From a virus (lineage: Duplodnaviria; Heunggongvirae; Uroviricota; Caudoviricetes): a DNA stretch of 60,642 bases. The stretch lies in IMG/VR virus record IMGVR_UViG_2721755676_000007; one strand, written 5' to 3'. The position numbers and the translations under genes are program-made. The notes beneath the pieces are model-generated. The model ran no database searches. It was not told where the DNA came from and was given only the letters and a program-made list of their open reading frames with translations. Each line of letters opens with the position of its first letter. The stretch's first letter is position 1. Below are positions 7,301 to 34,267 of this stretch, piece after piece.

Positions 7301-7817
7301 GCAGGTTACCCACCACCACCGATGCCAGATACTGTGAGGTGGTTTTGCCTTTAATGGTGATGTCTTTTTCCGTCACCCAGCCACCGTTACGTTGTATCTG
7401 AACCAGCAGGCGGACTTCCGACGGATTCCGGTCCCCCTTTGAGGTGGTTTCCACCAGTGCCTGCACACCGAAGGTAAAGCGCAGACGGTCGATGTTTGCC
7501 GACGTGATGGTGCGGGTAATCGGCGTGTCGTATTTCACTTCCGTACCCAGCACCGTCTCGGAACCGGAGGATTCAAAGCCCTCCGGCGGCGTCTGCTCCT
7601 GCTCACCTGCCCGGAACACCACCGTGACGCCGGAGATATTGGTATTCCCCTCACTGTCCAGCACCGGCGTACTGTTCAGCAGCACGCTTTTTAATCCATC
7701 CACCGGACCTTCAATCGGCCCTTCGCTGATGACATCGATCACACTCAGCAGCTGCGTGGACTTCAGGTTGTCCTTCGCTTCGCGCGGGGTATGCCCCTTA
7801 CTGCTGCCTTTACCCAT
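4338..7817 (-). CDS. J: Tail tip / host specificity protein J
   Basis: 1159-aa ORF beginning [24 protein letters not shown], collinear with lambda J. Confidence 0.95.
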
Positions 7818-10223: not shown

Positions 10224-12799
10224 CGTCCACCTCCGGAGAACAGACCACCATCGCGCATCTGCCCGGTCACAACATCCATTGCCGCCTTACGGGCTACGTC
10301 ATAAACCGCCTTCAGCGCCTGTGGCCCTATCTGACCGTTCGTGCCGTCGTTGTTAATCACCACATGGTTATTCTGCTCAAACGTCCCGGACGCCTGCGAC
10401 CGGCTGTCTGCCATGCTGCCCGGTGTACCGACATAACCGCCGGTGGCATAGCCGCGCATCAGCCGGTAAAGATTCCCCACGCCAATCCGGCTGGTTGCCT
10501 CCTTCGTGAAGACAAACTCACCACGGTGAACAATCCCCGCTGGCTCATATTTGCCGCCGGTTCCCGTAAATCCTCCGGTTGCAAAATGGAATTTCGCCGC
10601 AGCGGCCTGAATGGCTGTACCGCCTGACGCGGATGCGCCGCCACCAACAGCCCCGCCAATGGCGCTGCCGATACTCCCGACAATCCCCACCATTGCCTGC
10701 TTAAGCAGAATTTCTGTCATCATGGACAGCACGGAACGGGTGAAGCTGCGCCAGTTCTGCTCACTGCCGGTCAGCATCGCCGCCATATTCTGTGCAATAC
10801 CATCAAAGGTCTGCGTGGCTGCACTTTTTACCTGCGACATACTGTCCGTGGCGCTCTCTTCCCACTCACTCCAGCCGGACTTCAGGCCTGCCATCCAGCT
10901 CCCGCGAAGCTGGTCTTCAGCCGCCCAGGTCTTTTTCTGCTCTGACATGACGTTATTCAGCGCCAGCGGATTATCGCCATACTGTTCCTTCAGGCGCTGT
11001 TCCGTGGCTTCCCGTTCTGCCTGCCGGTCAGTCAGCCCCCGGCTTTTCGCATCAATGGCGGCCCGTTTTGCCCGTTGCTGCTGTGCGAATTTATCCGCCT
11101 GCTGCGCCAGCGCGTTCAGGCGCTCCTGATACGTAACCTTGTCGCCAAGTGCAGCCAGCTGGCGTTTGTACTCCAGCGTCTCATCTTTATGCGCCAGCAG
11201 GGATTTCTCCTGTGCAGACAGCTGGCGACGTTGCGCCGCCTCCTCCAGTACCGCGAACTGGCTCTCCGCCTTCCACAAATCCCGGCGCTGCTGGCTGATT
11301 TTCTCATTTGCTCCGGCATGCTTCTCCAGCGTCCGGAGTTCAGCCTGAAGCGTCAGCAGGGCAGCATGAGCACTGTCTTCCTGACGATCGCCCGCAGACA
11401 CCTTCACGCCGGACTGTTTCGGCTTTTTCAGCGTCGCTTCATAATCCTTTTTCGCCGCCGCCATCAGCGTGTTGTAATCCGCCTGCAGGATTTTCCCGTC
11501 TTTCAGTGCCTTGTTCAGTTCTTCCTGACGGGCGGTATATTTCTCCAGCGGCGTCTGCAGCCGTTCGTAAGCCTTCTGCGCCTCTTCGGTATATTTCAGC
11601 CGTGATGCCTCAGACTCGGCCCAGTCCTTTGCTGCCATCTCTCTGGCCTTTTCAAGATCGGCCTGCAACGTGGCGGCTGAAAGCCCAAGTTGCGCATTCG
11701 CTCTGTCCTCCCATGCTCCCCGGAGATTGGCAAGAAATGCTGAGGTTTTACCGCGCCGGTGGCTCCGGCTCTGATACCACTGCCATTTTTTGTCCGCCTC
11801 ATCAAAAGCCTTTTCTGCTTTCTCCAGCATTCCCTGGGCAGTGTCCGGGCGACCAATATCCAGCACCGAATCCCACATGGATTTGAATGCCCGTGCTGTC
11901 CTGTCTGCCCAGGTCTCCAGCGTGCCCATGTTCTCTTTCAGGCGGCGGGTCTGGTCATCAAACCCTTTCGTTGCGGCCTCGTTCGCCGCCTGCAATGCCC
12001 CGGCTTCATCTCCGGAACGCTGCAACTGAGCAACATACGCAATCTGCTCCGCCGTCACGTTATGGAACTGACGTGCCATCGCTGTCAGTCCCGACGTCGG
12101 GTCTGTGGTCAGCTTCCCGAAGGCTTCAGCGACCTTGTCCACCTCCACGCCGGATGCAGAGGAGAAACGCGCCACACTCTGGCTGATCGCCTCAAACTGC
12201 TCACCACCACGCACACCGGCATTCACCAGCGCCGTCAGTGACTCGCTGGTCTGGTTAAACGTCAGCCCTGCCGCCTGCCCGGCTCTGGACAGGACCAGCA
12301 TACGATCTGCCGTCAGTCCCGCCTGATTGCCGGAAAGGACCAGCGTTTTGTTGAAATCGGACAGGGTTGAGTTGCCCTGATACCAGGCATACGCCAGCGT
12401 ACCGGTCGCCACCGCCAGCGAGGTGGCCCCCACCATCGGCAGGGTGATCGCACCGGCAAGCCCCCTGAACATGGGGATCATCCCGCCGAAGGAGTCCTTA
12501 ACCTGCCCCCCCTGTTGCAGCAGGATCAGCCACGGGCTTTGCCCGCCTGCAAGCTGCGTGGCCACGTCGGTGAACTGTGCAGGCAGCATACGCATGGCGG
12601 CTTTATACTGCCCGACGGAAATCCCCGCTTTCTGTGCAGCCAGCGCCTGTCGGCTCAGCGACTGTTCAACGACTGCCGCTGTTTTTTTCGCATCAGTTTC
12701 CGTACCGGAAAAATGACGCCTGACTCTGGCCATCTGCTCGTCAAATCTGGCCGCATCCAGACTTAAATCAACGACCAGATCGCCTACCGGTTCAGCCAT
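10220..12799 (-). CDS. H: Tail tape measure protein H
   Basis: 859-aa ORF with coiled-coil-rich middle and Gly-rich C-terminus, collinear with lambda H. Confidence 0.93.
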   Translation of the reverse strand: MAEPVGDLVVDLSLDAARFDEQMARVRRHFSGTETDAKKTAAVVEQSLSRQALAAQKAGISVGQYKAAMRMLPAQFTDVATQLAGGQSPWLILLQQGGQVKDSFGGMIPMFRGLAGAITLPMVGATSLAVATGTLAYAWYQGNSTLSDFNKTLVLSGNQAGLTADRMLVLSRAGQAAGLTFNQTSESLTALVNAGVRGGEQFEAISQSVARFSSASGVEVDKVAEAFGKLTTDPTSGLTAMARQFHNVTAEQIAYVAQLQRSGDEAGALQAANEAATKGFDDQTRRLKENMGTLETWADRTARAFKSMWDSVLDIGRPDTAQGMLEKAEKAFDEADKKWQWYQSRSHRRGKTSAFLANLRGAWEDRANAQLGLSAATLQADLEKAREMAAKDWAESEASRLKYTEEAQKAYERLQTPLEKYTARQEELNKALKDGKILQADYNTLMAAAKKDYEATLKKPKQSGVKVSAGDRQEDSAHAALLTLQAELRTLEKHAGANEKISQQRRDLWKAESQFAVLEEAAQRRQLSAQEKSLLAHKDETLEYKRQLAALGDKVTYQERLNALAQQADKFAQQQRAKRAAIDAKSRGLTDRQAEREATEQRLKEQYGDNPLALNNVMSEQKKTWAAEDQLRGSWMAGLKSGWSEWEESATDSMSQVKSAATQTFDGIAQNMAAMLTGSEQNWRSFTRSVLSMMTEILLKQAMVGIVGSIGSAIGGAVGGGASASGGTAIQAAAAKFHFATGGFTGTGGKYEPAGIVHRGEFVFTKEATSRIGVGNLYRLMRGYATGGYVGTPGSMADSRSQASGTFEQNNHVVINNDGTNGQIGPQALKAVYDVARKAAMDVVTGQMRDGGLFSGGGR

Positions 12800-18920: not shown

Positions 18921-19680
18921 TCTTCTCCTCCTCTGTTGATTGTCGCAGTCCGGATTCAAATGCCGCAGCCGCCCAGGCGGGCGGTTTAAGACCGGCTGCG
19001 CGGCGCTCCATCGTTTCACGGACCTGCTGGGCAAAAATTTCCTGATAGTCGTCACCGCGTTTCGCGCACTCTTTCTCGTAGGTGCTCAGTCCGGCTTCTA
19101 TCAGCATCACCGCTTCCTGAACTTCTTTCAGACCATCGATGGCCATACGACCGGAGCCTATCCAGTCGCAGTTCCCCCAGGCACTGCGGGCTTCCTGAAA
19201 ACTGAAGCGCGCTTTTGAAGGTAACGTCACCACGCGGCGAACGATGGCCTCTTCCAGCCAGCACAGAAACATCTGGCTCGCCTGACGGGATGCGACGAAT
19301 TTTCGCCGCCCCATAAAGTACGCCCACGACTCGTTCGCACTGGCCCGTGCCGTGGAGTAGCTCATCTGGGCGTAATTCCGGGAAAGCTGCTCATACGAGA
19401 CACCCAGCCCGGCAGCAATATACCGCAACAGTGACTGCTCAAATACGGAGTAGCCGTTATCCGTGTCCTGAGCCGTCTGCAGGTTCAGTGAGTCCCCCGG
19501 CATCAGGTGCGGCACTTTTGCGCCTCCCAGCCGGACCGGTGCTGCGGCGTAATACGCGGCAATTTCACCAATCCAGCCAGTCAGCCTTTCCCGCTGCTCC
19601 TGACTGTTCGCGCCCAGAATAAAATCCATCGCTGACTGCGTATCCAGCTCACTCTCAATGGTGGCGGCATACATCGCCTT
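18901..19680 (-). pseudogene. B: Portal protein B, C-terminal fragment (separated from its N-terminal part by the 10.9 kb insertion)
   Basis: Reads ...KA-MYAATIESELDTQSAMDFILGAN... to a C-terminus ending EEEKSDSRAA as in lambda B; upstream sequence beyond 19680 is unrelated. Confidence 0.9.
19673..19680. repeat. Left copy of the 8-bp junction direct repeat ATCGCCTT (att core or target duplication)
   Basis: Identical octamer at 30572-30579; both copies read K-A-(M/I) in the B frame. Confidence 0.85.
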
Positions 19681-19754
19681 TATGAAAAGACAGGAAAAAA
19701 TAAAATTTAAAAACAGTACATTACGAATGCTCAGACCTATCGTTTAAAGGAGTC

Positions 19755-19777
19755 GCAATACACACTGCAATACACGA
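19755..19777. repeat. Two direct copies of GCAATACAC(A/G) near the left end of the insert (candidate integrase arm sites)
   Basis: tcGCAATACACAcTGCAATACACGa; three copies of TGCAATACACA occur at the other end (30381-30434). Confidence 0.5.
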
Positions 19778-20107
19778 TTATTTATAAGATGAGCGGCATC
19801 CGTCATAAAGCTGGTGGATGCTTTTTCTATGCATATATGCACAGTTTTAGTGGGCGTTAATGTCGATATAGGGATCCCCATATCGAGATTGGATACCTGG
19901 CTTTTTTCCGGTTAACCTTTAATCAGGCTGGTGGGCTTTACCTGTTTTGTATGAGTGGTCATCATGACCATGTCATAACAAAAACCCCATATTCGTGGTT
20001 TTTCTGTGTCGGGCTATTCTGTCGTTGCTGTGCTGATTTGGCTGGTGGGCTGAATCATCATTACGGCGATGCAGCTATGTAGACGTTCCGGCCTCCTCAA
20101 ATTGAGG

Positions 20108-20245
20108 ATTGTGGAAGAATCAATGGGTTAGTCTTACTTTCCCGACATCCCCCAATGGGGGTTTTCGAAACAATCAATAGCTTAGGCTTACTTCCCCGAT
20201 TTCCTGCATTGCAGGTTTTCGAAATAATCAATGGGTTAGGCCATC
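20108..20245. repeat. 54-bp tandem repeat, about 2.5 copies, each unit containing a short hairpin palindrome
   Basis: AATCAATGGGTTAG / AATCAATAGCTTAG / AATCAATGGGTTAG at 20118, 20172, 20226; palindromes CCCCCAATGGGGG (20149-20161) and CCTGCATTGCAGG (20203-20215). Confidence 0.7.
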
Positions 20246-20489
20246 GTGCAATTTTGCACTTTGCCAGCCAGCGCAATGTCGCGTTATCAGTCCTCAGATG
20301 TGAGGGATGTAGCCAGCTTTTCCCCCAGTGGGGGATATCCAGCACCGACGGCTTAACTGTGCGTGCCAGCACAAGGTAGCCTTGAACTACTTACTGCATC
20401 CCATCTTACAGGCCGTGCCTTCCTGCTTAACTTTTTGCAATGCAACAAGTCAGCCAGCGCAATTTTGCGTTATCGGGAATATCAGCAAG

Positions 20490-20771
20490 TTACCGCCGCA
20501 ATCGTTCCGGCTTCTTCCACTGGTAAGTATTTTTCGCGCTCTCCCTCCGTTGTTGAGAACGGCGACGATATGCCAGCAACTCAAGGACTCTTGTTCGTAT
20601 GTTGCGCATATCCACGCCGTTAAGCTCAATACCGTCACGGCGCATCACCTCAGCCACTACACGCACATAATTATCTGCGGTCACGCTGTCCGGCTGCGTG
20701 GCCTGTTCGTCATGCTGCTTGCTGATTCCACAAGCACGGCGGATTAATCGCAGTATTTCGGATTCAGTCAT
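20490..20771 (-). CDS. Hypothetical protein (93 aa), satellite-encoded
   Basis: ORF downstream of the Nu1-like gene in the same orientation; no recognisable motif. Confidence 0.45.
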   Translation of the reverse strand: MTESEILRLIRRACGISKQHDEQATQPDSVTADNYVRVVAEVMRRDGIELNGVDMRNIRTRVLELLAYRRRSQQRRESAKNTYQWKKPERLRR

Positions 20772-20782
20772 AGCGTACTACG

Positions 20783-21337
20783 TTACTTATCTTTATTCGG
20801 CTGCAACTTATCCGGTACGTTTCCGGCAGTTTCCATCAGATAATCGGACAGCATCAGCGGTATGTTTTCGTCAAGTTTTGCGCATGCGTTACAGGCTCTG
20901 ATAACTTCTTTTTTCAGTCCATCCAGCATAGACGGCTTCATGTCGGGAAACTTCCTTGTCATGGCAAGCGGCAGGCTGTCCATGATTGAAGAAATCTGAC
21001 TCGCCAATTTTGAAAGCACGTATATACAAAACGCTGTATCAATAACGTCGCCGCGTTCGCGCTCGTTTTTAAGCTCCTGCGCCTCTGCCTGTGCTGTCAG
21101 CAATCTGATCCTGACTCGTAGAAGTTCATCATCATCAATCTCGCCTTTGTCGTCTGTAATCTGGTTAATTGCATTGCTAACCCGATTGTCTATTACGCTG
21201 GCAACATCATAAAACGCCTCGCGGCCTTTACGTTCAACGGGAGTCACTCCCCACTTGTCGAACGCTGTCGCACTTACACGGCAGCTTTGCGCCATGTTTT
21301 TTTTGTTCATCAGGTGCGATTTCATCAATATCCCCAC
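20783..21337 (-). CDS. Terminase small subunit homologue (Nu1-like), satellite-encoded
   Basis: C-terminal half aligns with lambda Nu1 (DTAFCIYVLSKLASQISSIMDSLPL vs ETAFCTFVLSRIAGEIASILDGIPL); sits about 120 bp downstream of the satellite cos; start may be the internal MNKKNM at 21310. Confidence 0.8.
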   Translation of the reverse strand: MGILMKSHLMNKKNMAQSCRVSATAFDKWGVTPVERKGREAFYDVASVIDNRVSNAINQITDDKGEIDDDELLRVRIRLLTAQAEAQELKNERERGDVIDTAFCIYVLSKLASQISSIMDSLPLAMTRKFPDMKPSMLDGLKKEVIRACNACAKLDENIPLMLSDYLMETAGNVPDKLQPNKDK

Positions 21338-21436
21338 TTAAGTAATGTTTCAGGTTGGTGTATTGGCTTTATCTTTTCCTTTTTATTCATAGAGATAGAG
21401 CGAACAACAAAACCACCACCAGCACCCGAAAAAGGC

Positions 21437-21502
21437 TCATAAATAGCGAAAACCCGCGAGGTCGCCGCCCCGTAGCCTACCGGATCACCGGAAAGGACCC
21501 GC
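21437..21502. other. Satellite cos site (cosN 12-mer at 21459-21470)
   Basis: 66-bp block with 4 mismatches to the prophage cos block at 34202-34267; contains the reverse complement of GGGCGGCGACCT; flanking cosB-side sequence differs. Confidence 0.8.
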
Positions 21503-21526
21503 CAGCCAGAGCGGGCCCTAATTTCA

Positions 21527-21910
21527 TCAACCAATCAGCTTATAGCGACCATCCCGTGCATTGCGGCGTACACGCTCAATCTTGAGGCATAGCGCCGCAT
21601 CTGGCTTTTTTGGGACAGGTACGCGGCAATATTCAGAAGCGCGAGGAATATTATTTATCCAGTCGATCACTTCACTTAAATACCAGGCCTTACGCCCTTC
21701 CGTAACCTGCACACGCTCCGGGAACTCTCCACTAGCCTCAAGGTTTAGCAGTGTACGACGACTCAGGGTTGTAATTTCCATCACCTGATTCATATCAACA
21801 AGGCGCTCGCTTAAACACATTTTGTCAGCGATAGCTTTTAATTCCTCTACAGCTGGATTCGGGTACATCATTTCGGCAATTGGCTTAAGGTCATTGTAAT
21901 CATTCTGCAT
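21527..21910 (-). CDS. AlpA-family HTH regulator (127 aa)
   Basis: C-terminal region ITTLSRRTLLNLEASGEFPERVQVTEGRKAWYLSEVIDWI resembles AlpA/excisionase-type HTH. Confidence 0.55.
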   Translation of the reverse strand: MQNDYNDLKPIAEMMYPNPAVEELKAIADKMCLSERLVDMNQVMEITTLSRRTLLNLEASGEFPERVQVTEGRKAWYLSEVIDWINNIPRASEYCRVPVPKKPDAALCLKIERVRRNARDGRYKLIG

Positions 21911-21921
21911 TGTATCCCCCT

Positions 21922-22263
21922 TTACACACGAGCCAGCGGCTGAACAGAAATACCTGAGCCAACAAACGCTGCAACCTTTACTGACAGTTCTTTAACAGAC
22001 TCAGGCCAGTTCAGAGCATCAACATTTAAGACACCTGTCTTATAGACCTGAGCCTGTGTTTTTTTCGCGGTGTCGATTTGTACAGCGGAAACATAAACCG
22101 CTTTACCTACGCTCGAACCATCCCATACCACCAGTGCACCTGTTGCATCTTCCTGCATCAGTGGCGTAAATGCAGGAATTACCCCTTTATTAGCTGAAAA
22201 TATCCCCAGCGTAGTCACCAGTGCTTCAGTGCCAGCCATGAGTTCAGTGTAATGAGTAGCCAT
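21922..22263 (-). CDS. Head decoration protein D paralogue, satellite-encoded
   Basis: 113 aa; aligns with lambda D over VWDGSSVGKAVYVSAV...YKTGVLNVDALNWPE vs [17 protein letters not shown]...[15 protein letters not shown]. Confidence 0.7.
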   Translation of the reverse strand: MATHYTELMAGTEALVTTLGIFSANKGVIPAFTPLMQEDATGALVVWDGSSVGKAVYVSAVQIDTAKKTQAQVYKTGVLNVDALNWPESVKELSVKVAAFVGSGISVQPLARV

Positions 22264-22272
22264 TGCTCCCCC

Positions 22273-23319
22273 TTAGCCAATGCGAACGGTAACAAAACGA
22301 TTGATGCGGGCCGGTATTGGCTGTGGTGCTGAATGTGTCTGCACATATTCAATAGCCGGATCACCAGGCACAATATAGTTTTTCGGTGCAAGTTCGGCTT
22401 TAGTCAGCCCCATTCGGATTAGCTCCGGATCCTGAATACCGCCATAGGCGACAATCCCCTGAAGAGCCGTATTGCCAAGCACCATCAAATCAGGATCAAG
22501 GAAATGTTTTTCTGTTCCGTCCTCGTCGGTATAACGCCCGCTGTAAACAACAATCGCAACATCGCCCATATACCCTTTAAAACTCACCGAATCACCAAGG
22601 TCTTTAAGGGCCGTTTCCAGTTCGGAATTAGAACCACGACGGGTATCCAAAGCCTCTTTTATCGCTCTGAATGAACGGTATTTCTTCCATACATTACCAC
22701 CCATAATGATGATATTAGTGACGCCCTCACTAAATTCTGCGTAGCTCTCAATATCATCATTTGGATCAAAAGTTTCTTTATCCTTACCTGACCACTCAGT
22801 ACCGCCAGACTGAGTGATGATATTTTGTGGTTTTATATTCCAGTCCAGCTCATAACGTTCAATACCATCGCCCTCAATGATATTTTTCCCCGTTGTGATT
22901 GCCTGAACAGCAAGCCATTCAATACGTGCACGAATAGCTTTAGCCTGATTTACAATCGCCTGTTTAACTTTAATATTACGCGCCCCAAAAGCATTGTATT
23001 GCTCAGGTGACACACCAGCAGGGCGCACAGCTAACTTATTTGGATCAATGCTGCTTTTCGGCTTCATATAACCTGGACGAATTGTTTTTGATTCGTATCC
23101 CTCATCTCGTGAAACTTTACTGCCCACCATAGGAGAGCAAAACGCCGCGATCGGGATATTTGGATCGTCGATCGTATCAAGAATAATGTCTCTCGATTCA
23201 AACATTACCGAGCGAGTGAAAAACAAACTGGTAAACAACGCATTTAATTTTTTTTGCACATCTTCAGCATTAGCCACCTGCACAAGCTGTGTAGGCGAAT
23301 ATAAATCAACCATACTCAT
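22273..23319 (-). CDS. Major capsid protein E paralogue, satellite-encoded
   Basis: 349 aa from MSMVDLYSPTQL; conserved blocks ITQSGGTEWSGKDKETFDPNDDIESYA and LDTRRGSNSELETALKDLGDSVSFKGYMGDVAIVVYSGRY match lambda E. Confidence 0.85.
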   Translation of the reverse strand: MSMVDLYSPTQLVQVANAEDVQKKLNALFTSLFFTRSVMFESRDIILDTIDDPNIPIAAFCSPMVGSKVSRDEGYESKTIRPGYMKPKSSIDPNKLAVRPAGVSPEQYNAFGARNIKVKQAIVNQAKAIRARIEWLAVQAITTGKNIIEGDGIERYELDWNIKPQNIITQSGGTEWSGKDKETFDPNDDIESYAEFSEGVTNIIIMGGNVWKKYRSFRAIKEALDTRRGSNSELETALKDLGDSVSFKGYMGDVAIVVYSGRYTDEDGTEKHFLDPDLMVLGNTALQGIVAYGGIQDPELIRMGLTKAELAPKNYIVPGDPAIEYVQTHSAPQPIPARINRFVTVRIG

Positions 23320-23530
23320 CCTCTTTACATTCATTACAAATAATTGTGAATATATTCTATTACCGATGTCTGCTATGCGAACACATGCAACCAAGTGCAA
23401 TGTTGTATAAAATATGCCGTAACAACTTCAGTGCTGATAATTCGTGTTAATGTATTTACTTCCTTTGGTCGGGATTTATGTAGCATGCCGGAAAATCTAT
23501 TTTTTTCCGGCATCTTTTTGTTTGCAGAAT

Positions 23531-23953
23531 TTAAAACGGTATATTATCGCCGTACGGATCATCATTCCCCGACTGTTGTTTTGCCCTGTTCAGTGCGTCA
23601 GTGGCCTGCCCCTGCTGGCCTTTTTTGCCGCCCGGTCGCGCCGTTCGCGCACTGATTACGCTGTCTGCGATAAGCTGCCAGCCCCGCCGCGTTTCGCCGT
23701 TCTGGCCTGTCCACTGGCTTACCTGCATGTTACCCGCCACGCTCACCAGTTCGCCTTTGTGGTGTTTTGCCAGTGCGTCGGCCTGTCTGCCAAACGCCAG
23801 GACGGATAACCACATCGTCGCCGTTCCGTCATCTGCCTGGCTGCACGGCAGGGGAACCGCCATACTCGCCATCGCCATTTGTGTCCCTTTGCTGGTGGTC
23901 TTTAACTGCGGGTCAGCCACCAGCCGCCCGTAAGCCGCTATCTGTGCTGTCAT
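23531..23953 (-). CDS. ssb: Single-stranded DNA-binding protein (SSB-like)
   Basis: 140 aa with OB-fold-like N-terminus, Gly/Gln-rich linker and acidic C-terminal tail ending DNIPF (SSB tip DDDIPF). Confidence 0.7.
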   Translation of the reverse strand: MTAQIAAYGRLVADPQLKTTSKGTQMAMASMAVPLPCSQADDGTATMWLSVLAFGRQADALAKHHKGELVSVAGNMQVSQWTGQNGETRRGWQLIADSVISARTARPGGKKGQQGQATDALNRAKQQSGNDDPYGDNIPF

Positions 23954-24264
23954 GCTGTCTGCTCTCCGGTTTTAACATTGATGGTTGTCACCTGTTCCGC
24001 TTCGGCAATCTCCCGTTCTGTCAGCGTGGCAAAGTTTGCCGCTGCTGTGGTCATAAATGCGCTTATCAGGTCGGGATGTTCCTTCGCGTATCCTGCCCGT
24101 GTGTGGTGGTCTATCGCTTTGATTGCCACCTTTAAGGAAAGCTCTGTCATGTCTAACGCTTTATATTTTGCCTGTGTTCTGTCTCTGCGAATTTTGGTCA
24201 TTTGTCGCCCCTGATTCATGTTTTCGGCTGGCATGTTTGTTAAGTGATTTTTATGTATGCGCAT
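23950..24264 (-). CDS. Hypothetical protein (104 aa)
   Basis: ORF coupled to ssb (ATGA overlap), immediately downstream of the iteron region. Confidence 0.45.
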   Translation of the reverse strand: MRIHKNHLTNMPAENMNQGRQMTKIRRDRTQAKYKALDMTELSLKVAIKAIDHHTRAGYAKEHPDLISAFMTTAAANFATLTEREIAEAEQVTTINVKTGEQTA

Positions 24265-24315
24265 TTATTTTCACCCCCCCTCGTTTAAAAAGTTTTTAGT
24301 TGTGCCTCCCCCCCC

Positions 24316-24537
24316 TCTACCCATCTACCCGAATGCTCATCATGTCAGTAATGGCGCCGCTTTCAGCGGGTAGATAGCTTTTTTGACTCCTCTACCTGCC
24401 GTCTACCCTGCTACCTGAAACTGATAAAATCAGGTAGAAGAGGTAGAGAGCTTTTATTAGCCTTCTACCTAGCCCTATACCCACTTATCATGTTGAATAA
24501 TATGCGTTTATTTCGTTCAGGTAGATGGGGTAGATGG
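24316..24537. repeat. Iteron array (GGTAGA / TCTACC repeats), candidate satellite replication origin
   Basis: At least 12 copies of the hexamer in both orientations immediately downstream of the primase gene. Confidence 0.7.
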
Positions 24538-24550
24538 CTTTTACAAAAAA

Positions 24551-26305
24551 TTATAAAAACGCGTCGCAATCGTCTGTTGTAATTGCGTTGGTCTGCGTTA
24601 CTCCCTTAACTTTTCGCGTAATATATTCATGCCCGTAAACTTTCGCCGCTGGCTTCATGGCCTTGCTGAACTCAGCCACGTTTAGCGGTTTGCTCCTGCC
24701 CGCGTATGCCATAAACGCCAGATAGACGCGGTAAAGGCTGTTCCTGGTCGTGTACTTCACTGAATCACCACCGCCACCCATCATCAGGCCGCGCGCTTCC
24801 TCCAGAAAATTCAGGAACTGGCAAAACTCAATAACCGGATCCGTCTGTTGCTTTATTGCCAGTGCTTCATCACCGTCACGCTGTTCCAGTAGTAAAGCCC
24901 GTGCCTTCTCAGGGTCGGTAAAGTTCGCCAGCAATCGGCGGATAATAACGGGGATTTCAGCCGCAATCTTTTCCGGTAGCTCCCTGTCTTTTTCGGCCTC
25001 ACTGACGATATTGTCGAAACGGAAAATCACGCGACGACGTGCCACACCTCCGGCCCGTTCGGTGAATATCATCGGGTTGTTGTTGGTCGCCAGCACCACC
25101 GCCCTGATTACCGCCGTGAAACGCTTTTCATATTTCGGGTTAATTTCCACGGGGTCGCCGCCTGTGATTTTCTTGATGCCCGTTCCTTCGCCTGTATATT
25201 TCGGCTGGTCAGCCAGGACGATAAGACGACTCCCGACAACCTGCGCACGTCCACCAGCATCATCAAGCGATGTCATTTCAGCGCTTACCGTGTTCTGTTT
25301 CCCTGCCAGAAGGCTGGCTATGTGTGTGAATGTACTTTTACCGCTCCCGCCGTCTCCGGTGGCCTCAATAAACATCTGCCAGTCGTACCGGTTCGCCATA
25401 ATCATGTACAGCGCGGCACATATACGCATCATCTTGCGCGGGTCTTTTCCGGCTGCGTGCTCAAGCCATTTATGAAAGTTTGGCGCGTTATCGCGGATGT
25501 TCTCCCCTGGTGCTGGTGGCGTGTACTCAATGCCGTTGTGCGTGGTGATCCAGTTCTCCGGCGTGTGCGGGGAAAATTCCCCCGTTTTCAGGTCAAGCGC
25601 ACCATTGGCGAACGGCAGCAAATCGCCAGACGGCTCGCCCATTGGTTCGGCAATAACTTTTAACGCTTCCACGGCGTTATTGATTACGCGCTTGCTGAAA
25701 GTGGCCCTGTGCTCTGAATAGATCGCCACCATTTCGCGGCTAAGTTCCATTGTGCTGACCGGACACCATACCCCGCCGCGCCATACGTGAACGATTTCAC
25801 TTTCAGGATGTACGCAAACGCCATCAAAGCGATCGGCAAGCAACTGCGCGCGCTCACTGTCCGCCATCTGCGAAAGTTGCGCCTTTTGCTTTACCGGAAG
25901 CTCAATGACCAGACCATCAGAAAGATTCTGGCGTTCACGGGCCAGATATTCGCGCCAGTTCTGCACCTCCTGGCCGTGCATACCCTCAGGATAAAAATTT
26001 GCATCCTGTACGCCTGCTGCCGCCAGCTTCTGACCAATCGCCTTTATCATTACAGGCGCAAGATATCCGGCCCTGTATATGCGTGCTGATTTTCGGCCTT
26101 CCGGCACAATTTGCAGATTATCCAGTTCGGATAGCTGCTGCTCCCCAAGCCACACAGGAGGCTCATTATCTCCGGCCATACGCGCATCATGTTCCTGCCA
26201 TTGTTTCGCGTGTGCCCAGGCATCACTACCCGCAAAAATAATTACTTCTGTTCCTTTGTGTTTTATGCCGCGTGACTGCTGTTTTACGTTCGGTGCCAGT
26301 TTCAT
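24551..26305 (-). CDS. P4 alpha-like primase/helicase (D5 family, Walker A GDGGSGKST)
   Basis: 584-aa ORF with P-loop NTPase core and phage/plasmid primase C-terminal-type architecture. Confidence 0.8.
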   Translation of the reverse strand: MKLAPNVKQQSRGIKHKGTEVIIFAGSDAWAHAKQWQEHDARMAGDNEPPVWLGEQQLSELDNLQIVPEGRKSARIYRAGYLAPVMIKAIGQKLAAAGVQDANFYPEGMHGQEVQNWREYLARERQNLSDGLVIELPVKQKAQLSQMADSERAQLLADRFDGVCVHPESEIVHVWRGGVWCPVSTMELSREMVAIYSEHRATFSKRVINNAVEALKVIAEPMGEPSGDLLPFANGALDLKTGEFSPHTPENWITTHNGIEYTPPAPGENIRDNAPNFHKWLEHAAGKDPRKMMRICAALYMIMANRYDWQMFIEATGDGGSGKSTFTHIASLLAGKQNTVSAEMTSLDDAGGRAQVVGSRLIVLADQPKYTGEGTGIKKITGGDPVEINPKYEKRFTAVIRAVVLATNNNPMIFTERAGGVARRRVIFRFDNIVSEAEKDRELPEKIAAEIPVIIRRLLANFTDPEKARALLLEQRDGDEALAIKQQTDPVIEFCQFLNFLEEARGLMMGGGGDSVKYTTRNSLYRVYLAFMAYAGRSKPLNVAEFSKAMKPAAKVYGHEYITRKVKGVTQTNAITTDDCDAFL

Positions 26306-26601
26306 TTTTTACCTCTGAATCCGTTAATCATGGTTTTCATTTTCTGGATATTTCCCCACGCTTTTTCCCTGCTGATGGGCTTACTGCGGGGTGCGGCATA
26401 TACCAGGGAAAAATCACGCCGGAACTGATAAACAGGCATCACGCAGTCATAGCTATACCCCTCACGGCGGTAAGTGATGCGCCGTTCTGCCACGCCTTTA
26501 ATCGTTACCGTGCCGCCGTATTTATCGCGGTAAATATCGCCGTTCATAAATTCAGGTCGAGCGGGGCCGCTGGCAATAAAGCCAGAATTTTTCATTTCCA
26601 T
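26302..26601 (-). CDS. Hypothetical protein (99 aa)
   Basis: ORF coupled to the primase start (overlap at 26302-26305). Confidence 0.45.
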   Translation of the reverse strand: MEMKNSGFIASGPARPEFMNGDIYRDKYGGTVTIKGVAERRITYRREGYSYDCVMPVYQFRRDFSLVYAAPRSKPISREKAWGNIQKMKTMINGFRGKK

Positions 26602-26618
26602 ATTATTTATTCCTCGAC

Positions 26619-26840
26619 TTAACTCGACTTATTTGATAGCAGGGCACTATTTATTGCGTCATTGAGTTTTTCTGCTGATTCATCAATAAGTGACAACAGG
26701 CCATAAGCAATATTTGCATCTTCATTGTCATTTATGCAATCAAGCCACATATTTAATATTGCTTTTGCTGAATTATTTAAAGTTAATGAACTTTCTGCAC
26801 ATGCTAACAATTTAAAAAAGACTTCCCGTTCTGTATTCAT
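26619..26840 (-). CDS. Hypothetical protein (73 aa)
   Basis: Small ORF in the same operon orientation. Confidence 0.4.
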   Translation of the reverse strand: MNTEREVFFKLLACAESSLTLNNSAKAILNMWLDCINDNEDANIAYGLLSLIDESAEKLNDAINSALLSNKSS

Positions 26841-27032
26841 TTAATCCCCCACCAGCTTACTTTCTTCCTCAATCAAAAAACTAGCGACACTTCCCGAAAG
26901 ACGCGCCAGTAGGCTCGCCAGTGCGGATATATCAGCATCTGTAATTTTGTTCGGGTATACCTCAAGAAGGCGGCAAATAATTTCTGTCTGGTGCGCACGT
27001 TCAGCGGCTTCGTGTAATGTAATTTCCTGCAT
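26841..27032 (-). CDS. Hypothetical protein (63 aa)
   Basis: Stop/start overlap with the next ORF at 27032. Confidence 0.4.
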   Translation of the reverse strand: MQEITLHEAAERAHQTEIICRLLEVYPNKITDADISALASLLARLSGSVASFLIEEESKLVGD

Positions 27033-27217
27033 TAATGCACCTCTTTTAATTCATACACTGCTGAAATAATGACTTGTGATAAGCCATATTCTGATGATTC
27101 GCTTCTCACCGCAGCAATAGCCGTCTGAACATTAACAGCCTTCACATTCTGAGCGATACCAATTGTGTGGCCTATTGGGTTAACAGCTCGGGCAAATACA
27201 CGGAAGGTTTTAAGCAT
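27032..27217 (-). CDS. Hypothetical protein (61 aa)
   Basis: ATG preceded by GGGAG-type Shine-Dalgarno; first gene of the leftward operon. Confidence 0.45.
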   Translation of the reverse strand: MLKTFRVFARAVNPIGHTIGIAQNVKAVNVQTAIAAVRSESSEYGLSQVIISAVYELKEVH

Positions 27218-27597
27218 GACTCACTCCCTGGCGGATTTTTGCAGCGAATACAGCAACACAACCGGACGGGCAACGGCTACGCGCTTCGCGTTCCGTCCAG
27301 GCGGTTACGTGGATGATTTGAGATTCTCCGGCACTCAGTGCCAGAAAACGCCACACAAAGGCCGTTTGTGTGTGTACAAGGTGTGGTATATGATTTACAG
27401 CAACCATAACGGCTCCTAGTTTACGTTGTTGGTTAGACGCCCCGTATGTGTTCCCAGCACTGCGGGGCGTTGCTCTTTGTATTTCAACAATCCTTTCGGT
27501 GTGTTTCATGTTATGAGCGCATGAAACACACGTCAAGGCTTTTTGTATTTCTTTTTTTGTGTATACTGAAACACACCGATGATTAGGAGTTTCAGAA

Positions 27598-27903
27598 ATG
27601 GCAACGGCTAACAAAAACGCAAAATCACAACTGACAACTGTCAGAGTCCCACTAGATGTTATGCAAGGGATGGAATCCGTTAAGCTGGACGGTGAAAGCA
27701 ATGCCGGATTTATCGTAACCGCCATGCGCGGAGAAATAGCCCGCCGCCAAGCAGAAGGCAGCGGAGAAAATCCCCTTGTGTCGTCACTGGATGCCCTGGC
27801 TAAGGTCGAACAAATCGGCATCAAAGCAGCCGAGGAGATCGGGCAACTCGTCACCGTCGCGCGTGAAGAACTCCAGCGACGCAAGGTCAAAGAGCATGAA
27901 TAG
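27598..27903 (+). CDS. Small DNA-binding-like protein (possible ribbon-helix-helix), the only plus-strand gene in the satellite
   Basis: 101 aa; AGGAG 8 nt upstream of ATG; divergent from the small-ORF/primase operon across 27218-27597. Confidence 0.5.
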   Translation: MATANKNAKSQLTTVRVPLDVMQGMESVKLDGESNAGFIVTAMRGEIARRQAEGSGENPLVSSLDALAKVEQIGIKAAEEIGQLVTVAREELQRRKVKEHE

Positions 27904-28236
27904 CCAATATCAGCGCCATAGTTTGAGGAACGCAGGCGCATTGCTTTACAGGACAGCACCATGAGCGACACAGAATCAACCAAAACACCATCACCAACTC
28001 GTAAGAGACGACGCAAAAATATAGCGCATGAACATGAATCAGAAAGATTCGCACCTTGTTCGTTTGCTCTTGAGAAATTCCTTAAAGAGCACAGGAAAAA
28101 GCTCTCGTTGCAAACCTTGGAACGAACCAAATCTGGCTGATCACATTGCCCACCAGCCGCAAATGTGGCATTGTTGGTGATGCTTTTGTTTTCCCTTGTT
28201 CCCACTGGCGACCCTTTTGCGGTCGCCTTTGTTTTG

Positions 28237-28560
28237 TCACTGAATGCGGTTACCAAAGTAAAACTCAGGCTGATATTCACGTATCAGCGTTTTTTCTTCT
28301 TCCTCCAGCTCACGCTTTTTGCGCTTACATGCCTGTAGCTCCCTCCCCTTCTCGCTGGCACTTATTTGATATTGCTCTTTACGGCGGGAAAAATCCTGTA
28401 ATGCACCCCACGGGATACCATAAGTCCCCGTTTTTCTGATACCTGGTATCACATTTCTGAATACCCAGTTACTGAAACGATGAGCAAATGTGCCAGGCGT
28501 CGTTGCTTTGCGGCTGCGGGCTATTAGTTTGTAGAAACCTGACTCAGAGATAATTCTCAT
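28237..28560 (-). CDS. Bro-N domain protein, C-terminal part (split ORF)
   Basis: SESGFYKLIARSRKATTPGTFAHRFSNWVFRNVIPGIRKTGTYG is the second half of a Bro-N domain. Confidence 0.6.
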   Translation of the reverse strand: MRIISESGFYKLIARSRKATTPGTFAHRFSNWVFRNVIPGIRKTGTYGIPWGALQDFSRRKEQYQISASEKGRELQACKRKKRELEEEEKTLIREYQPEFYFGNRIQ

Positions 28561-28814
28561 ATTCTGATTTCCTCCTGGGTGTAAGTTAAATTTACTCCCT
28601 TTTCATCATCATCAAGCATCTGCAACGCCGTACGCGAATTGGTTAGTTCCAGCGCAGCACAAACATCTTTTGCAACAAACCACGGATCGCCGTTCAGATA
28701 CACCACACGAACGTTCACACTATCAAAGCGCAGAACGACGAGATCACGAATATCGCAGAATTTTTTCACTGGACGAGCGTACCCCTTGCCCGTCACGGCA
28801 ATATTTTTATTCAT
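28557..28814 (-). CDS. Bro-N domain protein, N-terminal part (split ORF)
   Basis: DPWFVAKDVCAALELTNSRTALQMLDDDEKG is the first half of a Bro-N domain; ends GGAGGAAATCAGAATATGA overlapping the next start. Confidence 0.6.
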   Translation of the reverse strand: MNKNIAVTGKGYARPVKKFCDIRDLVVLRFDSVNVRVVYLNGDPWFVAKDVCAALELTNSRTALQMLDDDEKGVNLTYTQEEIRI

Positions 28815-28870
28815 CGCGTTTTTACCTTATAGACAAAAAACCCCTCGTGATGAGGGGCATTATTTACTGG

Positions 28871-29128
28871 TTATTGCTGTTTTGTTTTTCCAGGTTTCCA
28901 TCCAGGATGCCACTCACCACGGATCCATGCCTGAACCTCTGAAAGTCGATACCCTGCAGCACGTTCACCGATCTTGATACGTCGCGGGAATTTACCTGCC
29001 TGCTCCATTTTCCAGCGTGTTGAGTTTGCCAGCGTGGTAAGTGCTATGCACTCTTTTTCACGAATGAACCGATCAATGTCCTTCATTGTGCGCAAATCGT
29101 TTTCATCAACAAGAGAATAAATTGCCAT
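28871..29128 (-). CDS. alpA: AlpA-family transcriptional regulator / excisionase-like
   Basis: 85 aa directly downstream of the integrase, typical P4/CP4-57-type int-alpA pair. Confidence 0.7.
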   Translation of the reverse strand: MAIYSLVDENDLRTMKDIDRFIREKECIALTTLANSTRWKMEQAGKFPRRIKIGERAAGYRLSEVQAWIRGEWHPGWKPGKTKQQ

Positions 29129-29129
29129 A

Positions 29130-30371
29130 TCACACCACCTCTTTATTAAGCTCGATAACGTTGTTGTTAAATCCTGCTATCGTATTAAGGTAATTAACCC
29201 ACATATTAAGCACCTCAAGTTTTTTCTTTATATGCCTGCTTTTATTGTAAACACCAGCAACCCCTTTCACTTTATGACCTAAAAGAAGTTCGACAATATA
29301 AGGATCCGCCCCCATATCATTAAGCGTAGTGGAAAATGTGCGCCTGAAATCATGTATGCACCACAAGCCATTAGTATCATGACCAAGACGCCTGCATATT
29401 CTGTTTGCAGCCCCTGTTATTGTCGCCCTTTGCAAAGCACAACCGACAACATAACCGCGATTTTTTGTTTCTGCGTAAAGATTAACGATCCATTGTTTTA
29501 TTCCGTCAGGAACAGGCCTTACTATAGCCTCCTTGTTTTTGCTGTGCTCTTTTGGGACTGTCCATACCCAGTTTTTTAAATCCCATTCGTCCCAGGTGGA
29601 TAGCCTCGCCTCCTGCTGTCGGCAACCAAACACCAGGCAGATAACCATTATTCTTCGGTTATATATTGATGACAGAGTTAGCAAATTATTACCGTAAGCA
29701 TAAGACCATACATCAGCGGTTTCATTGATATTAAGAACGCGATCCCTTATACCGGATGAGCGCCCGACATAACTTACGTTAATATCTCCAAAGGGATCGC
29801 ACGCGATGTATTGCCTGACGCGACAAAAACGCAACGCCTGTTTGATATCAAGAAAAATTGCACCAGACATAACAGGCGCATTTTTTTTGATCCTGTCAAA
29901 GACGGTAAGCCATGTGTGTAATTTGCACTGTTCTATAGCCATATCACCGATATAGGGGAAGATATGCTTTTCAAATCGTTTTATTAAATATTCATGCTCT
30001 TTTCTGGCTGTTGTGGCGTGATTGTCGTACCAGTAAAACAGCGCATCCCTTACGGTCACTGGTTGCATAGTTTTTTCGGCAGCAAGTTTTATTTGCCTGC
30101 GGGGGTCCAGATTTTCAGCCAGCCATTCACGGCACTGATCACGCATGCGCCTGGCCGTTGCAAGAGACATGTCAGGATAGCGACCAAGTGTAAGCCATAC
30201 CGGAGGGGATTCCCTGCCACCAAGACGATAGTAAAAAACAAAGCTGATCCCCCCAACCATGCTTACACGCACAGACAACCCGCGCCCATCCGCTATTGTT
30301 TTTTGTTTGTCCTGCCGTTTTCCGACAAGACTCTTTAACAGTTTGTCACTGAGTTTGTTTTCAATAGCCAT
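29130..30371 (-). CDS. int: Tyrosine integrase, P4-type
   Basis: 413 aa; N-terminal GRGLSVRV...GGISFVFYYRLGGR arm-binding-type domain; C-terminal HDFRRT...LLGH...Y catalytic signature. Confidence 0.88.
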   Translation of the reverse strand: MAIENKLSDKLLKSLVGKRQDKQKTIADGRGLSVRVSMVGGISFVFYYRLGGRESPPVWLTLGRYPDMSLATARRMRDQCREWLAENLDPRRQIKLAAEKTMQPVTVRDALFYWYDNHATTARKEHEYLIKRFEKHIFPYIGDMAIEQCKLHTWLTVFDRIKKNAPVMSGAIFLDIKQALRFCRVRQYIACDPFGDINVSYVGRSSGIRDRVLNINETADVWSYAYGNNLLTLSSIYNRRIMVICLVFGCRQQEARLSTWDEWDLKNWVWTVPKEHSKNKEAIVRPVPDGIKQWIVNLYAETKNRGYVVGCALQRATITGAANRICRRLGHDTNGLWCIHDFRRTFSTTLNDMGADPYIVELLLGHKVKGVAGVYNKSRHIKKKLEVLNMWVNYLNTIAGFNNNVIELNKEVV

Positions 30372-30380
30372 TAAAAGCCC

Positions 30381-30434
30381 TCAAGAGATTTGCAATACAC
30401 ACCCATCCCGATCGCCAATTTGCAATACACATTG
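30381..30434. repeat. Three direct copies of TGCAATACACA upstream of the satellite integrase (candidate arm-type sites)
   Basis: Copies at 30381, 30411 and 30424; same motif twice at the opposite end of the insert. Confidence 0.55.
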
Positions 30435-30571
30435 CAATACACAAAACCGCGAAAAACTGGAAGGGTGATGAACGGTCATCAAAAGCATGGAAAACGACAT
30501 TCCAGACGCAGCAAGGGTTTCAGTGGAGTTGGCGAACGATGCGGGCAACTACGGTGAGATGATAGACATAA

Positions 30572-33500
<2,929 letters not shown>

Positions 33501-34201: not shown

Positions 34202-34267
34202 TCATAAATAGCGAAAACCCGCGAGGTCGCCGCCCCGTAACCTGTCGGATCGCCGGAAAGGACCCGC
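34202..34267. other. Prophage cos site (cosN 12-mer at 34224-34235; lambda genome ends)
   Basis: Contains reverse complement of GGGCGGCGACCTCGCGGGTTTTCGCTATTTATGAAAATTTTCC and of the lambda right end ...CGACAGGTTACG. Confidence 0.9.

Follow-up and report, generated by a model that had tools for sequence, protein, structure and literature searches.

Tandem palindrome and IHF-consensus units related to a roi intragenic site at the integrase-distal end of a helper-embedded phage satellite

How phage-inducible chromosomal islands (PICIs) in Gram-negative bacteria sense their lambdoid helpers and interfere with them is understood only in part, and to our knowledge the non-coding ends of these satellites have been ignored to date, with the exception of the attP motif. 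Helper-embedded PICIs (HE-PICIs) are satellites of ~11 kb that lie in, and co-oriented with, a lambda-like late gene; they have the order integrase, AlpA, Bro zone, primase/SSB zone and late zone, a doubled TGTATTGC motif on both sides of attP, and a lambda-type cos (Tommasini, Mageeney & Williams 2023, PMC10111431). Here we analyze positions 19681-20489 of a 60,642-nucleotide stretch of Caudoviricetes DNA (IMG/VR record IMGVR_UViG_2721755676_000007; the whole stretch is called the window). To judge from its sequence, this region is the non-coding, integrase-distal end of a 10.9-kb HE-PICI (19681-30579) in portal gene B of a lambda-like prophage. The element shares all of the features just listed, with portal gene B as its late gene, and differs in having a Nu1-like gene where the type element of the paper is without terS. 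Terminal non-coding DNA beyond the attP motif, IHF/roi-type units and a Chi cluster are not described in the parts of PMC10111431 used here. Literature searches with the repeat sequences, and for PICIs together with IHF or Chi, did not turn up any account of such arrays or of an enrichment of Chi in PICIs.

The repeat units of the region resemble a site inside roi, a regulatory gene of phage HK022. Both are built as a module of ~53 bp with a palindrome, an A/T tract and an IHF consensus, and the palindromes of different roi alleles recur in the PICI units. The phages have one copy, in sense orientation and within coding sequence, whereas the array, in an element that has no roi, consists of at least three non-coding copies in tandem, which differ in allele type and run antisense to the island genes. 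The function of the Rha/Roi family is poorly known; HK022 Roi reportedly binds a site inside its own gene near an IHF site, and IHF is said to stabilize this binding. In the RIP/RIB (BIME-1) elements of Escherichia coli an IHF site is flanked by REP palindromes, and these elements likewise bring repeated extragenic IHF consensus sequences and short palindromes to the 3' end of transcription units. The units described here are not members of that family: by eye they bear no likeness to the REP consensus, their palindromes are shared with a phage regulator gene, and a genome holds pieces of the region at 1-6 places only, every examined context being a PICI end.

Two further systems offer a comparison of function. 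The P4 satellite carries binding sites for the Ogr activator of its helper P2, in defined late promoters and with proven function. The likeness is conceptual, a satellite holding DNA sites for a helper-encoded regulator, and differs in that the array here has no associated promoter and its sites are known from sequence. Chi is a control site of RecBCD, and exact Chi octamers are present here too, three of them co-oriented within 240 bp and ten in the satellite; their density in the satellite is far above the E. coli average of ~1 per 4.5 kb, and there are none in the surrounding lambdoid prophage. With moderate confidence, we favor the reading that 19681-20489 works as double-stranded DNA, as an array that would bind IHF and Roi-type proteins, accompanied by a cluster of Chi sites.

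Repeat units and their counterparts in roi

The right-hand part of the region holds three tandem units and their degenerate continuation.

20087-20140, plus strand: unit 1, with palindrome CCTCAAATTGAGG (20095-20107) and IHF consensus AATCAATGGGTTA (20118-20130); phi330-type roi cassette
20141-20194, plus strand: unit 2, with palindrome CCCCCAATGGGGG (20149-20161) and IHF consensus AATCAATAGCTTA (20172-20184); HK629/VT2-Sakai-type roi cassette
20195-20248, plus strand: unit 3, with palindrome CCTGCATTGCAGG (20203-20215) and IHF consensus AATCAATGGGTTA (20226-20238); third roi allele group
20247-20489, plus strand: further short palindromes and degenerate units, including GTGCAATTTTGCAC (20247-20260) and CCTCAGATGTGAGG
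20265-20288 and 20451-20474, plus strand: two copies of CAGCCAGCGCAAT..GCGTTATC
20322-20334, plus strand: decayed unit with CCCCCAGTGGGGG
20480-20492, plus strand: near-IHF box TATCAGCAAGTTA, overlapping the stop codon of a 93-aa gene

An earlier note, made from the letters of the window, had listed a tandem repeat, direct repeats, palindromes and a hairpin here, and repeat searches and reading of the sequence recovered every one of them at or within 1-3 bp of the coordinates given. Tandem Repeats Finder reports the 54-bp tandem repeat at 20118-20241 (period 54, 2.3 copies, 80% matches, score 164), and a repeat search places three 54-nt copies in register at 20088-20141, 20142-20195 and 20196-20249. 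To the five palindromes named in the note (CCCCCAATGGGGG at 20149-20161, CCTGCATTGCAGG at 20203-20215, GTGCAATTTTGCAC at 20247-20260, CCCCCAGTGGGGG at 20322-20334 and CGCAATTTTGCG at 20458-20469) we add a sixth that it had overlooked, CCTCAAATTGAGG at 20095-20107 in the first unit. The long direct repeat measures 24 nt with 92% identity (20265-20288 and 20451-20474), the 12-bp direct repeat GGCTGGTGGGCT stands at 19926-19937 and 20040-20051, the near-palindrome has arms at 19859-19874 and 19875-19890, and the plus-strand hairpin with a T-run spans 19795-19822 before TTTTT. Perfect palindromes with two 5-bp arms and a 3-nt spacer are ~5.6-fold enriched, with 7 in the 809 bp of the region where the 94 in the 60.6-kb window predict ~1.25.

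The dyad of a unit is a 13-bp site, extendable to ~25 bp, after which come an A/T tract and a perfect IHF consensus; the units conform to [..CCGRnnT]-[5-bp arm]-[3 nt]-[5-bp arm]-[TTyyCGAAA or ATTGTGGAAG]-[n]-[WATCArnnnnTTAG]. The constant box of each is a perfect match to the IHF consensus WATCAANNNNTTR, of which the 60.6 kb hold only five, three of them in the units, and the boxes at 20118, 20172 and 20226 are each preceded by TTTTCGAAA or GGAAGA. Twelve distinct PICI ends have 1-4 IHF-consensus boxes each, almost all co-oriented, and the pairwise difference in the box is 0.12 and 0.08 at the specified positions versus 0.32 at NNNN.

The palindromes vary in sequence and keep their symmetry, with types that include CCTCA/TGAGG, CCCCC/GGGGG, CCTGC/GCAGG, TCGCC/GGCGA, CAGCC/GGCTG and CCACA/TGTGG. 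Pairing in the inner helix reaches 97.5% among 32 distinct units, and double-sided changes are seen in all five inner pairs and in 7 of the 8 pairs overall; because the units were found by their IHF box and then filtered for at least four of five pairs, the percentage paired is inflated, but the number of compensated pair types is not. None of 500 shuffles reached the observed pairing values, and pairing fell to 52% or less when the partner was slid by one column. Comparison of 12 distinct CCTCA-type PICI units gives a per-site difference of 0.03 in the 3' arm, versus 0.33-0.35 in the 5' flank and linker. By these comparisons the palindrome appears to be under constraint in PICIs, as would fit an operator.

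A search of phage genomes with 19790-20489 matched 60 records. Unit 2 (20142-20194) has a match within roi of HK629, VT2-Sakai and many Stx phages, at 90.6% identity over 53 bp, and unit 1 (20087-20136) has one within the 'anti-repressor' gene of phi330, at 96% over 50 bp; the product of this phi330 gene is a Roi homologue (87% identical). The phi330 and HK629 Roi proteins differ mainly in their N-terminal ~63 residues, and most sharply in the cassette (..GVIRNPPMVVFEKINNLGLLRG.. versus ..GVIRHPQIEDCGRINGLGLNQS..). Roi consists of a Phage_pRha-type N-domain (under the Pfam cut-off, aligned end to end) and a KilAC (ANT) C-domain. In a tblastn comparison of both Roi proteins with the window, matches were confined to the units and no other roi sequence was found, so the region is not a decayed roi gene. 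The suspicion, raised in the earlier note, that the repeats might be degenerate coding sequence is therefore half borne out: the units do share homology with a stretch of roi coding sequence, but what is present is only the ~53-bp site cassette, in tandem and in three allele types.

Eighty roi loci from viral contigs (L160-L239) were aligned over codons ~33-69. They share an invariant AAAAAATCAATAACTTAGG, which is the IHF box, with one of four palindromes just upstream.

CCCCCAATGGTGG, 31 roi loci: PICI counterpart in unit 2, as the perfect CCCCCAATGGGGG
CCTGCATTGCAGG, 15 roi loci: PICI counterpart in unit 3
CCTCA[AAT/ATT]TGAGG, 32 roi loci: PICI counterpart in unit 1
CCGCCAATGGCTG, 2 roi loci: PICI counterpart in units of L005 and L132, two other PICI loci

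Since the palindromes of units 1-3 each match a different roi group, the three units of the window represent three roi allele types. The PICI form CCCCCAATGGGGG is a perfect palindrome, while its coding counterpart in roi is imperfect. HK022 roi has the unit 3 type, CCTGCATTGCAG, followed by AATCAATGATTTA, and reads CCTGCATTGCAG..ATAATCAATGATTTAGG. Across roi alleles (L160-L239, L157, L158 and L240), compensatory changes are found in the 13-bp palindrome, which lies within codons of the Rha-type DNA-binding domain. In four sequences, which between them carry three different downstream segments, CCTCA/TGAGG is joined by the putative recognition helix KRTIETL, and the putative helix K[Q/R/I]SIER[L/M] accompanies C-rich palindromes. 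This co-variation of helix and palindrome fits an operator, and linkage could be an alternative explanation. As a corollary of the operator reading, roi would have its operator inside the codons of its own DNA-binding domain, changing by compensatory steps with the recognition helix. The roi genes of L212 and L213 look recombinant, with a breakpoint just past the palindrome. Homologues of roi are present in 1040 of 5426 E. coli genomes.

The satellite and the same array in other islands

In an alignment with lambda, identity to portal gene B ends at 19680/19681 and restarts at 30580, and the placement of the region at the left end of an insert by the earlier note was correct. A query that starts at 19600 is identical to lambda portal gene B over its first 81 bases, the match breaking at 19680, at lambda coordinate ~3658. 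An imperfect identity block, CATA[C/A]ATCGCCTT, lies at both satellite/portal junctions.

19668-19680: left copy of the att identity block, CATACATCGCCTT, from lambda B alignment and sequence; left border of the 10.9-kb satellite in portal gene B
30567-30579: right copy of the att identity block, CATAAATCGCCTT, from sequence
19681-19790, plus strand: att arm, A-tract-rich DNA followed by the doubled motif GCAATACAC at 19755-19763 and 19767-19775
20490-20771, minus strand: 93-aa gene (phrog_1561, no known function), adjoining the array

Exactly five exact copies of GCAATACAC are present, all beside the junctions: at 19755 and 19767, ~80-90 bp from the att core, and beside int at 30392, 30422 and 30434, the last two ~133-150 bp from the core. 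The published HE-PICI attP has the doubled motif tgTGTATTGCantgTGTATTGCa ~81 bp from the centre on one side and ~132 bp on the other (PMC10111431), and by the fit to this pattern the first ~110 bp of the region are the att arm. The satellite genes, all on the minus strand like the portal gene, are arranged in the order integrase, AlpA, split Bro-N, small open reading frames (ORFs), DUF4222, D5_N/DUF5906 primase-helicase, SSB, gpE-like capsid, gpD-like decoration, a second AlpA-like gene, Nu1-like small terminase and the 93-aa ORF. Pfam matches are to Phage_integrase with Arm-DNA-bind_3, Phage_AlpA, Bro-N, D5_N/DUF5906, SSB, Phage_cap_E, HDPD and Phage_Nu1. The element thus shows every feature of the HE-PICI family examined here, namely the split portal gene, the gene order and the doubled attP motif. 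At least 80% of the 1-kb junction region is covered in 48 complete E. coli genomes, and the 25 of these that were listed are 99.9-100% identical.

Some observations on the genes and the att arm can be added. The Bro-N gene (28237-28814) is split into two ORFs of 85 and 107 aa, each matching one half of the Bro-N profile, where strain CFSAN064035 has one intact 579-bp Bro-N gene annotated; the split is possibly a frameshift or a variant. The 93-aa protein had no sequence match in Pfam, NCBIfam or the PDB, and its single-sequence AlphaFold model (three helices, predicted local distance difference test score 72) gave no significant fold match. The sole sigma-70-like match in the region is weak and lies on the minus strand (19806-19777, ATGACG-18-AATAAT), oriented across the att core; after excision, in the circular form, it would read in the direction of int. 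The pentamer GCAAT has six plus-strand copies in 19755-20463 versus ~1.2 expected, a count that takes in both Int-arm motifs as well as the cores of GTGCAATTTTGCAC, CGCAATGTCGCG, TTGCAATGCAA and CGCAATTTTGCG, and these copies may be further half-sites for Int or AlpA.

Of 5426 complete E. coli genomes, 1606 contain pieces of 19690-20489, each at 1-6 places, and a 21-mer scan of viral contigs gave 31 more loci. Nearly all of the matches listed in E. coli records fall under no annotated gene, in line with the noncoding status proposed by the earlier note. In H88, an 'hypothetical protein' is annotated over the matching segment (module A, described below), with marginal overlap only and in a prophage remnant disrupted by an insertion sequence. 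Three other islands carry homologous end DNA.

L003: HE-PICI in capsid gene E
L004: PICI beside clpS
L005: capsid-forming PICI (cf-PICI) beside phoQ of O157

In each of these, the homologous DNA is 650-950 bp long and unannotated, and it fills the space from the last island gene to the chromosomal flank. The modules are integrase-distal and antisense to the island genes in all four settings, that is, in HE-PICIs at two sites, the clpS-side PICI and the O157 cf-PICI. The 93-aa gene also stands next to the array in the present satellite, in L003 and in L005, regardless of which terminase genes precede it. From these comparisons the region appears as a mosaic of modules (module A and the repeat unit) common to many satellites.

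The arrays of other loci vary in detail. In L128 and L139 the units are spaced at 55 bp, which breaks the Roi frame, and the first unit of L154 and L155 retains 23 extra nt of roi coding sequence. The latter two, viral contigs that belong to a different element type, have iteron-like repeats TGAACCAAC/GTTGGTTCA just left of the unit array (L154 ~11900-12250, L155 ~6700-7000). A hydrophobic-start ORF of 37-57 aa, MFVVVALMVCVVIMTI.., lies left of the array in L004 (~7125-7240) and L005 (~7155-7330) and could encode a small membrane peptide or toxin. This ORF is absent from the window and no ORF is kept in frame across loci, and a small protein or type I toxin was rejected as the function of the region on these grounds.

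Left part of the region, and packaging and origin sites elsewhere

Between the att arm and the unit array lie a hairpin, module A and three Chi sites.

19795-19828, plus strand: terminator-like hairpin of 11 pairs followed by TTTTT, with Chi no. 1 (19810-19817) in its loop and 3' arm
19850-19950, plus strand: module A, consisting of palindrome CGATATAGGGATCCCCATATCG, then CCTGGCTTTTTTCCGG, then TTAATCAGGCTGGTGGGCTTTAC with Chi no. 2 (19927-19934)
20041-20048, plus strand: Chi no. 3, within the second copy of GGCTGGTGGGCT

The hairpin has the pattern of an intrinsic terminator, a G+C-rich stem with a T-run directly after it. Module A, with the shared pattern CGATATrGGGATCCCCATAtCG ... CCGG-T7-CCGG ... 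TTAATCAGGCTGGTGGGC, is also found at the ends of other PICI families, twice in L004 and in L005. All ten Chi sites (GCTGGTGG) of the window are inside the 10.9-kb satellite (19810-28157), five per strand, and none is found in the ~50 kb of prophage around it; chance would give ~2 in the window, and none of 100 shuffles reached ten. The three plus-strand sites in the region (19810, 19927 and 20041) are co-oriented within 240 bp, in the direction recognizable by RecBCD that enters cos-cut DNA 1.4 kb away, at its terS-proximal end. On the minus strand, four of the five sites face an enzyme entering at the opposite end and the fifth is only ~50 bp from the left end. The 12 distinct PICI ends together hold ~24 Chi in ~13 kb. 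We infer that the cluster may protect linear or rolling-circle satellite DNA in an element without a Gam-type inhibitor, may be a recombination hot spot at a variable end, or both.

Sites for packaging and replication were found in other parts of the satellite.

21400-21530, minus strand: satellite cos, upstream of the Nu1-like gene (20783-21337)
24300-24545: iteron-type origin, with about a dozen GGTAGA/TCTACC-type copies in both orientations and AT-rich spacers, downstream of the primase-helicase gene

The window has two exact copies of the lambda cohesive end GGGCGGCGACCT, at 21459-21470 in the satellite and at 34224 in the prophage cos. Satellite, helper and lambda are nearly identical to one another along ~70 bp of cosQ/cosN, while cosB has diverged. 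No lambda-type cos is present in 19681-20489, and with cosN and the shared cosQ 1 kb away at 21459-21470 the region was rejected as the packaging signal. It was likewise rejected as a replication origin or P4-like crr, as the iterons cluster at 24300-24545 and no GGTAGA/TCTACC copies were seen on reading the sequence of 19681-20489. The satellite cosB holds a Chi (21416-21423) ~40 bp from the cohesive end, and the Nu1-like protein of 184 aa matches the C-terminal half of the Nu1 profile only.

Evidence for a function in RNA was sought as well. Rfam 15 gave no match at E<=1 within 19000-31000, and a promoter scan of the region gave no plus-strand site. Folding z-scores are -2.4 (plus) and -1.7 (minus) for the array and -2.3 and -3.3 for the left part; they are alike on both strands, as DNA palindromes would give. 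A known RNA family was rejected in view of the lack of an Rfam match and of these unremarkable, strand-symmetric scores. Among the functions that the earlier note had suggested, the protein-binding array gains from the IHF consensus boxes and roi-type palindromes, the packaging signal loses to the cos found elsewhere, and the regulatory RNA is disfavored by the missing Rfam match and plus-strand promoter-like site.

Competing explanations and a proposed model of helper contact

The explanation that survives best beside a protein-binding array, though we regard it as unlikely, is that the region is relic DNA, made of decayed roi/rha scraps acquired by recombination with helpers, tandemly duplicated and functionless. 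The homology of the units to a coding segment of roi, the Roi frame that is open through units 1-3, the 23 further nt of coding sequence in the first unit of L154 and L155, and the existence of degenerate units such as that around 20322-20334 all agree with this origin, and PICIs are known to capture helper genes (PMC10111431). Simple decay is nevertheless hard to reconcile with an array that has only the ~53-bp site cassette, never other roi sequence, and joins three allele types in tandem. Conservation is much higher in the palindrome and at the IHF positions than in flanks and linker, and the symmetry of the palindrome exceeds that of its roi counterpart; the same position and orientation recur in four PICI families, and the 55-bp spacings of L128 and L139 break the frame.

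Quite unlikely, in our estimate, is an element that acts at the RNA level, whether as a string of plus-strand terminators against inward antisense transcription, as 3' stabilizers or as a small RNA. Compensatory changes in the stems would be expected of it, T-runs follow units 2 and 3 and the hairpin at 19795-19828 on the plus strand, the few G-T pairs are seen on the plus strand only, and host genes such as phoQ read into this end in L005. Covariance analysis, which the earlier note had proposed as a check of a structured RNA, returned the compensatory arm changes, but the folding scores are modest and similar on both strands, no Rfam family matches at E<=1 and no promoter-like site is present on the plus strand. 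The T-run after the unit hairpins is variable, other unit types having ATTGTGG, AAATTGG or AGGTCG in its place. The stems have 5 bp only, with loops of 3 nt, several neighbouring palindromes have spacers of 1-2 nt and are unable to form hairpins, and conservation within the unit peaks in the IHF box, which is unpaired.

We consider it improbable that the region is a recombination module, in which Chi and short roi homologies promote RecBCD/RecA exchange between satellite and phage, for cargo swapping at the variable end of the island or for conversion of roi cassettes by silent copies. The strong enrichment of Chi here and at other PICI ends, its conservation within module A, and a mosaic whose modules are shuffled among PICI families are in keeping with such a role, as are roi alleles that differ mainly in a block around the cassette and the recombinant-looking L212, with its breakpoint just after the palindrome. 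Homology tracts of only ~50 bp at 90-96% identity speak against it, no donor-recipient pair was found, and the specific conservation of the palindrome and IHF box is left unexplained; the enrichment of Chi is equally explained by the protection of linear satellite DNA without a Gam-type inhibitor. An accessory cos/pac element or second, crr-like replication site is highly improbable: the array does stand beside packaging genes, at 1-1.8 kb from the left cohesive end, lambda cosB and many origins contain IHF sites, and an iteron set adjoins the unit array in L154 and L155, but a full lambda-type cos stands at 21400-21530, a classic iteron origin stands at 24300-24545 with no iterons seen in the region, and the same array occurs in a cf-PICI with an unrelated P27-type terminase.

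Several points also weigh against the binding of IHF and Roi-type proteins that we favor. Beyond the selection of units for pairing mentioned above, compensatory changes in the arms are equally expected of a hairpin in RNA or single-stranded DNA. The Roi reading frame is open through all three units of the window, so that their coding origin is visible. A tblastn search found no roi homologue in the 30 kb of the hosting prophage that lie within the window, and a Pfam scan found no Rha-domain gene in the satellite, so the binding partner would have to come from other lambdoid phages. The orientation of Chi is mixed across the other PICI ends, with ~15 plus versus 9 minus. Roi of HK022 is reported to bind within its own gene beside an IHF site, and the tentative assignment of the palindrome as this Roi site is our own.

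If the array does bind these proteins, its parts could act together as follows. The att arm with its two copies of GCAATACAC would bind Int, and possibly AlpA. The three Chi sites face the cos/terS end of linear satellite DNA and would therefore stop degradation by RecBCD entering at that end, and stimulate recombination. In the phased modules, whose 54 bp correspond to about five helical turns, IHF would bend each module, and Roi-type regulators of lambdoid phages would dock on the palindrome of their own specificity. The array would then be a landing pad of multiple specificities, or a sink, for the early-lytic regulator of the helper, and docking may couple the satellite to the lytic programme of the helper or titrate Roi. 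Docking could also cue the satellite, or form a roadblock where the island ends; this is the weakest step of the model and is purely conjectural. A more general proposal, which we put forward tentatively and regard as possible rather than likely, is that PICI-type satellites carry an integrase-distal 'operator-mimic' array of tandem autoregulatory sites for Roi and IHF, one per Roi specificity, which would sense or soak up the early-lytic regulator of whichever helper is active. In a bolder variant, the Chi-flanked array would be a set of silent donor cassettes for switching the specificity of roi.

What appears to be new here is a satellite of a known type, the HE-PICI, whose end has sites related to the own operator of a helper regulator. 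Should binding prove absent, the repeats would be captured roi fragments, and the region would still not be an RNA gene, a cos site or an origin. The ten Chi sites in the satellite, as compared with none in the prophage, suggest that satellites without a RecBCD inhibitor protect or recombine their linear DNA via Chi. The analysis also flags the Rha/Roi family as one that may have an intragenic operator co-evolving with its protein. The recurrence of multi-allele arrays in the island ends examined leads to the hypothesis that Roi/Rha-family proteins, together with IHF, may be a new point of contact between satellites and their helpers.

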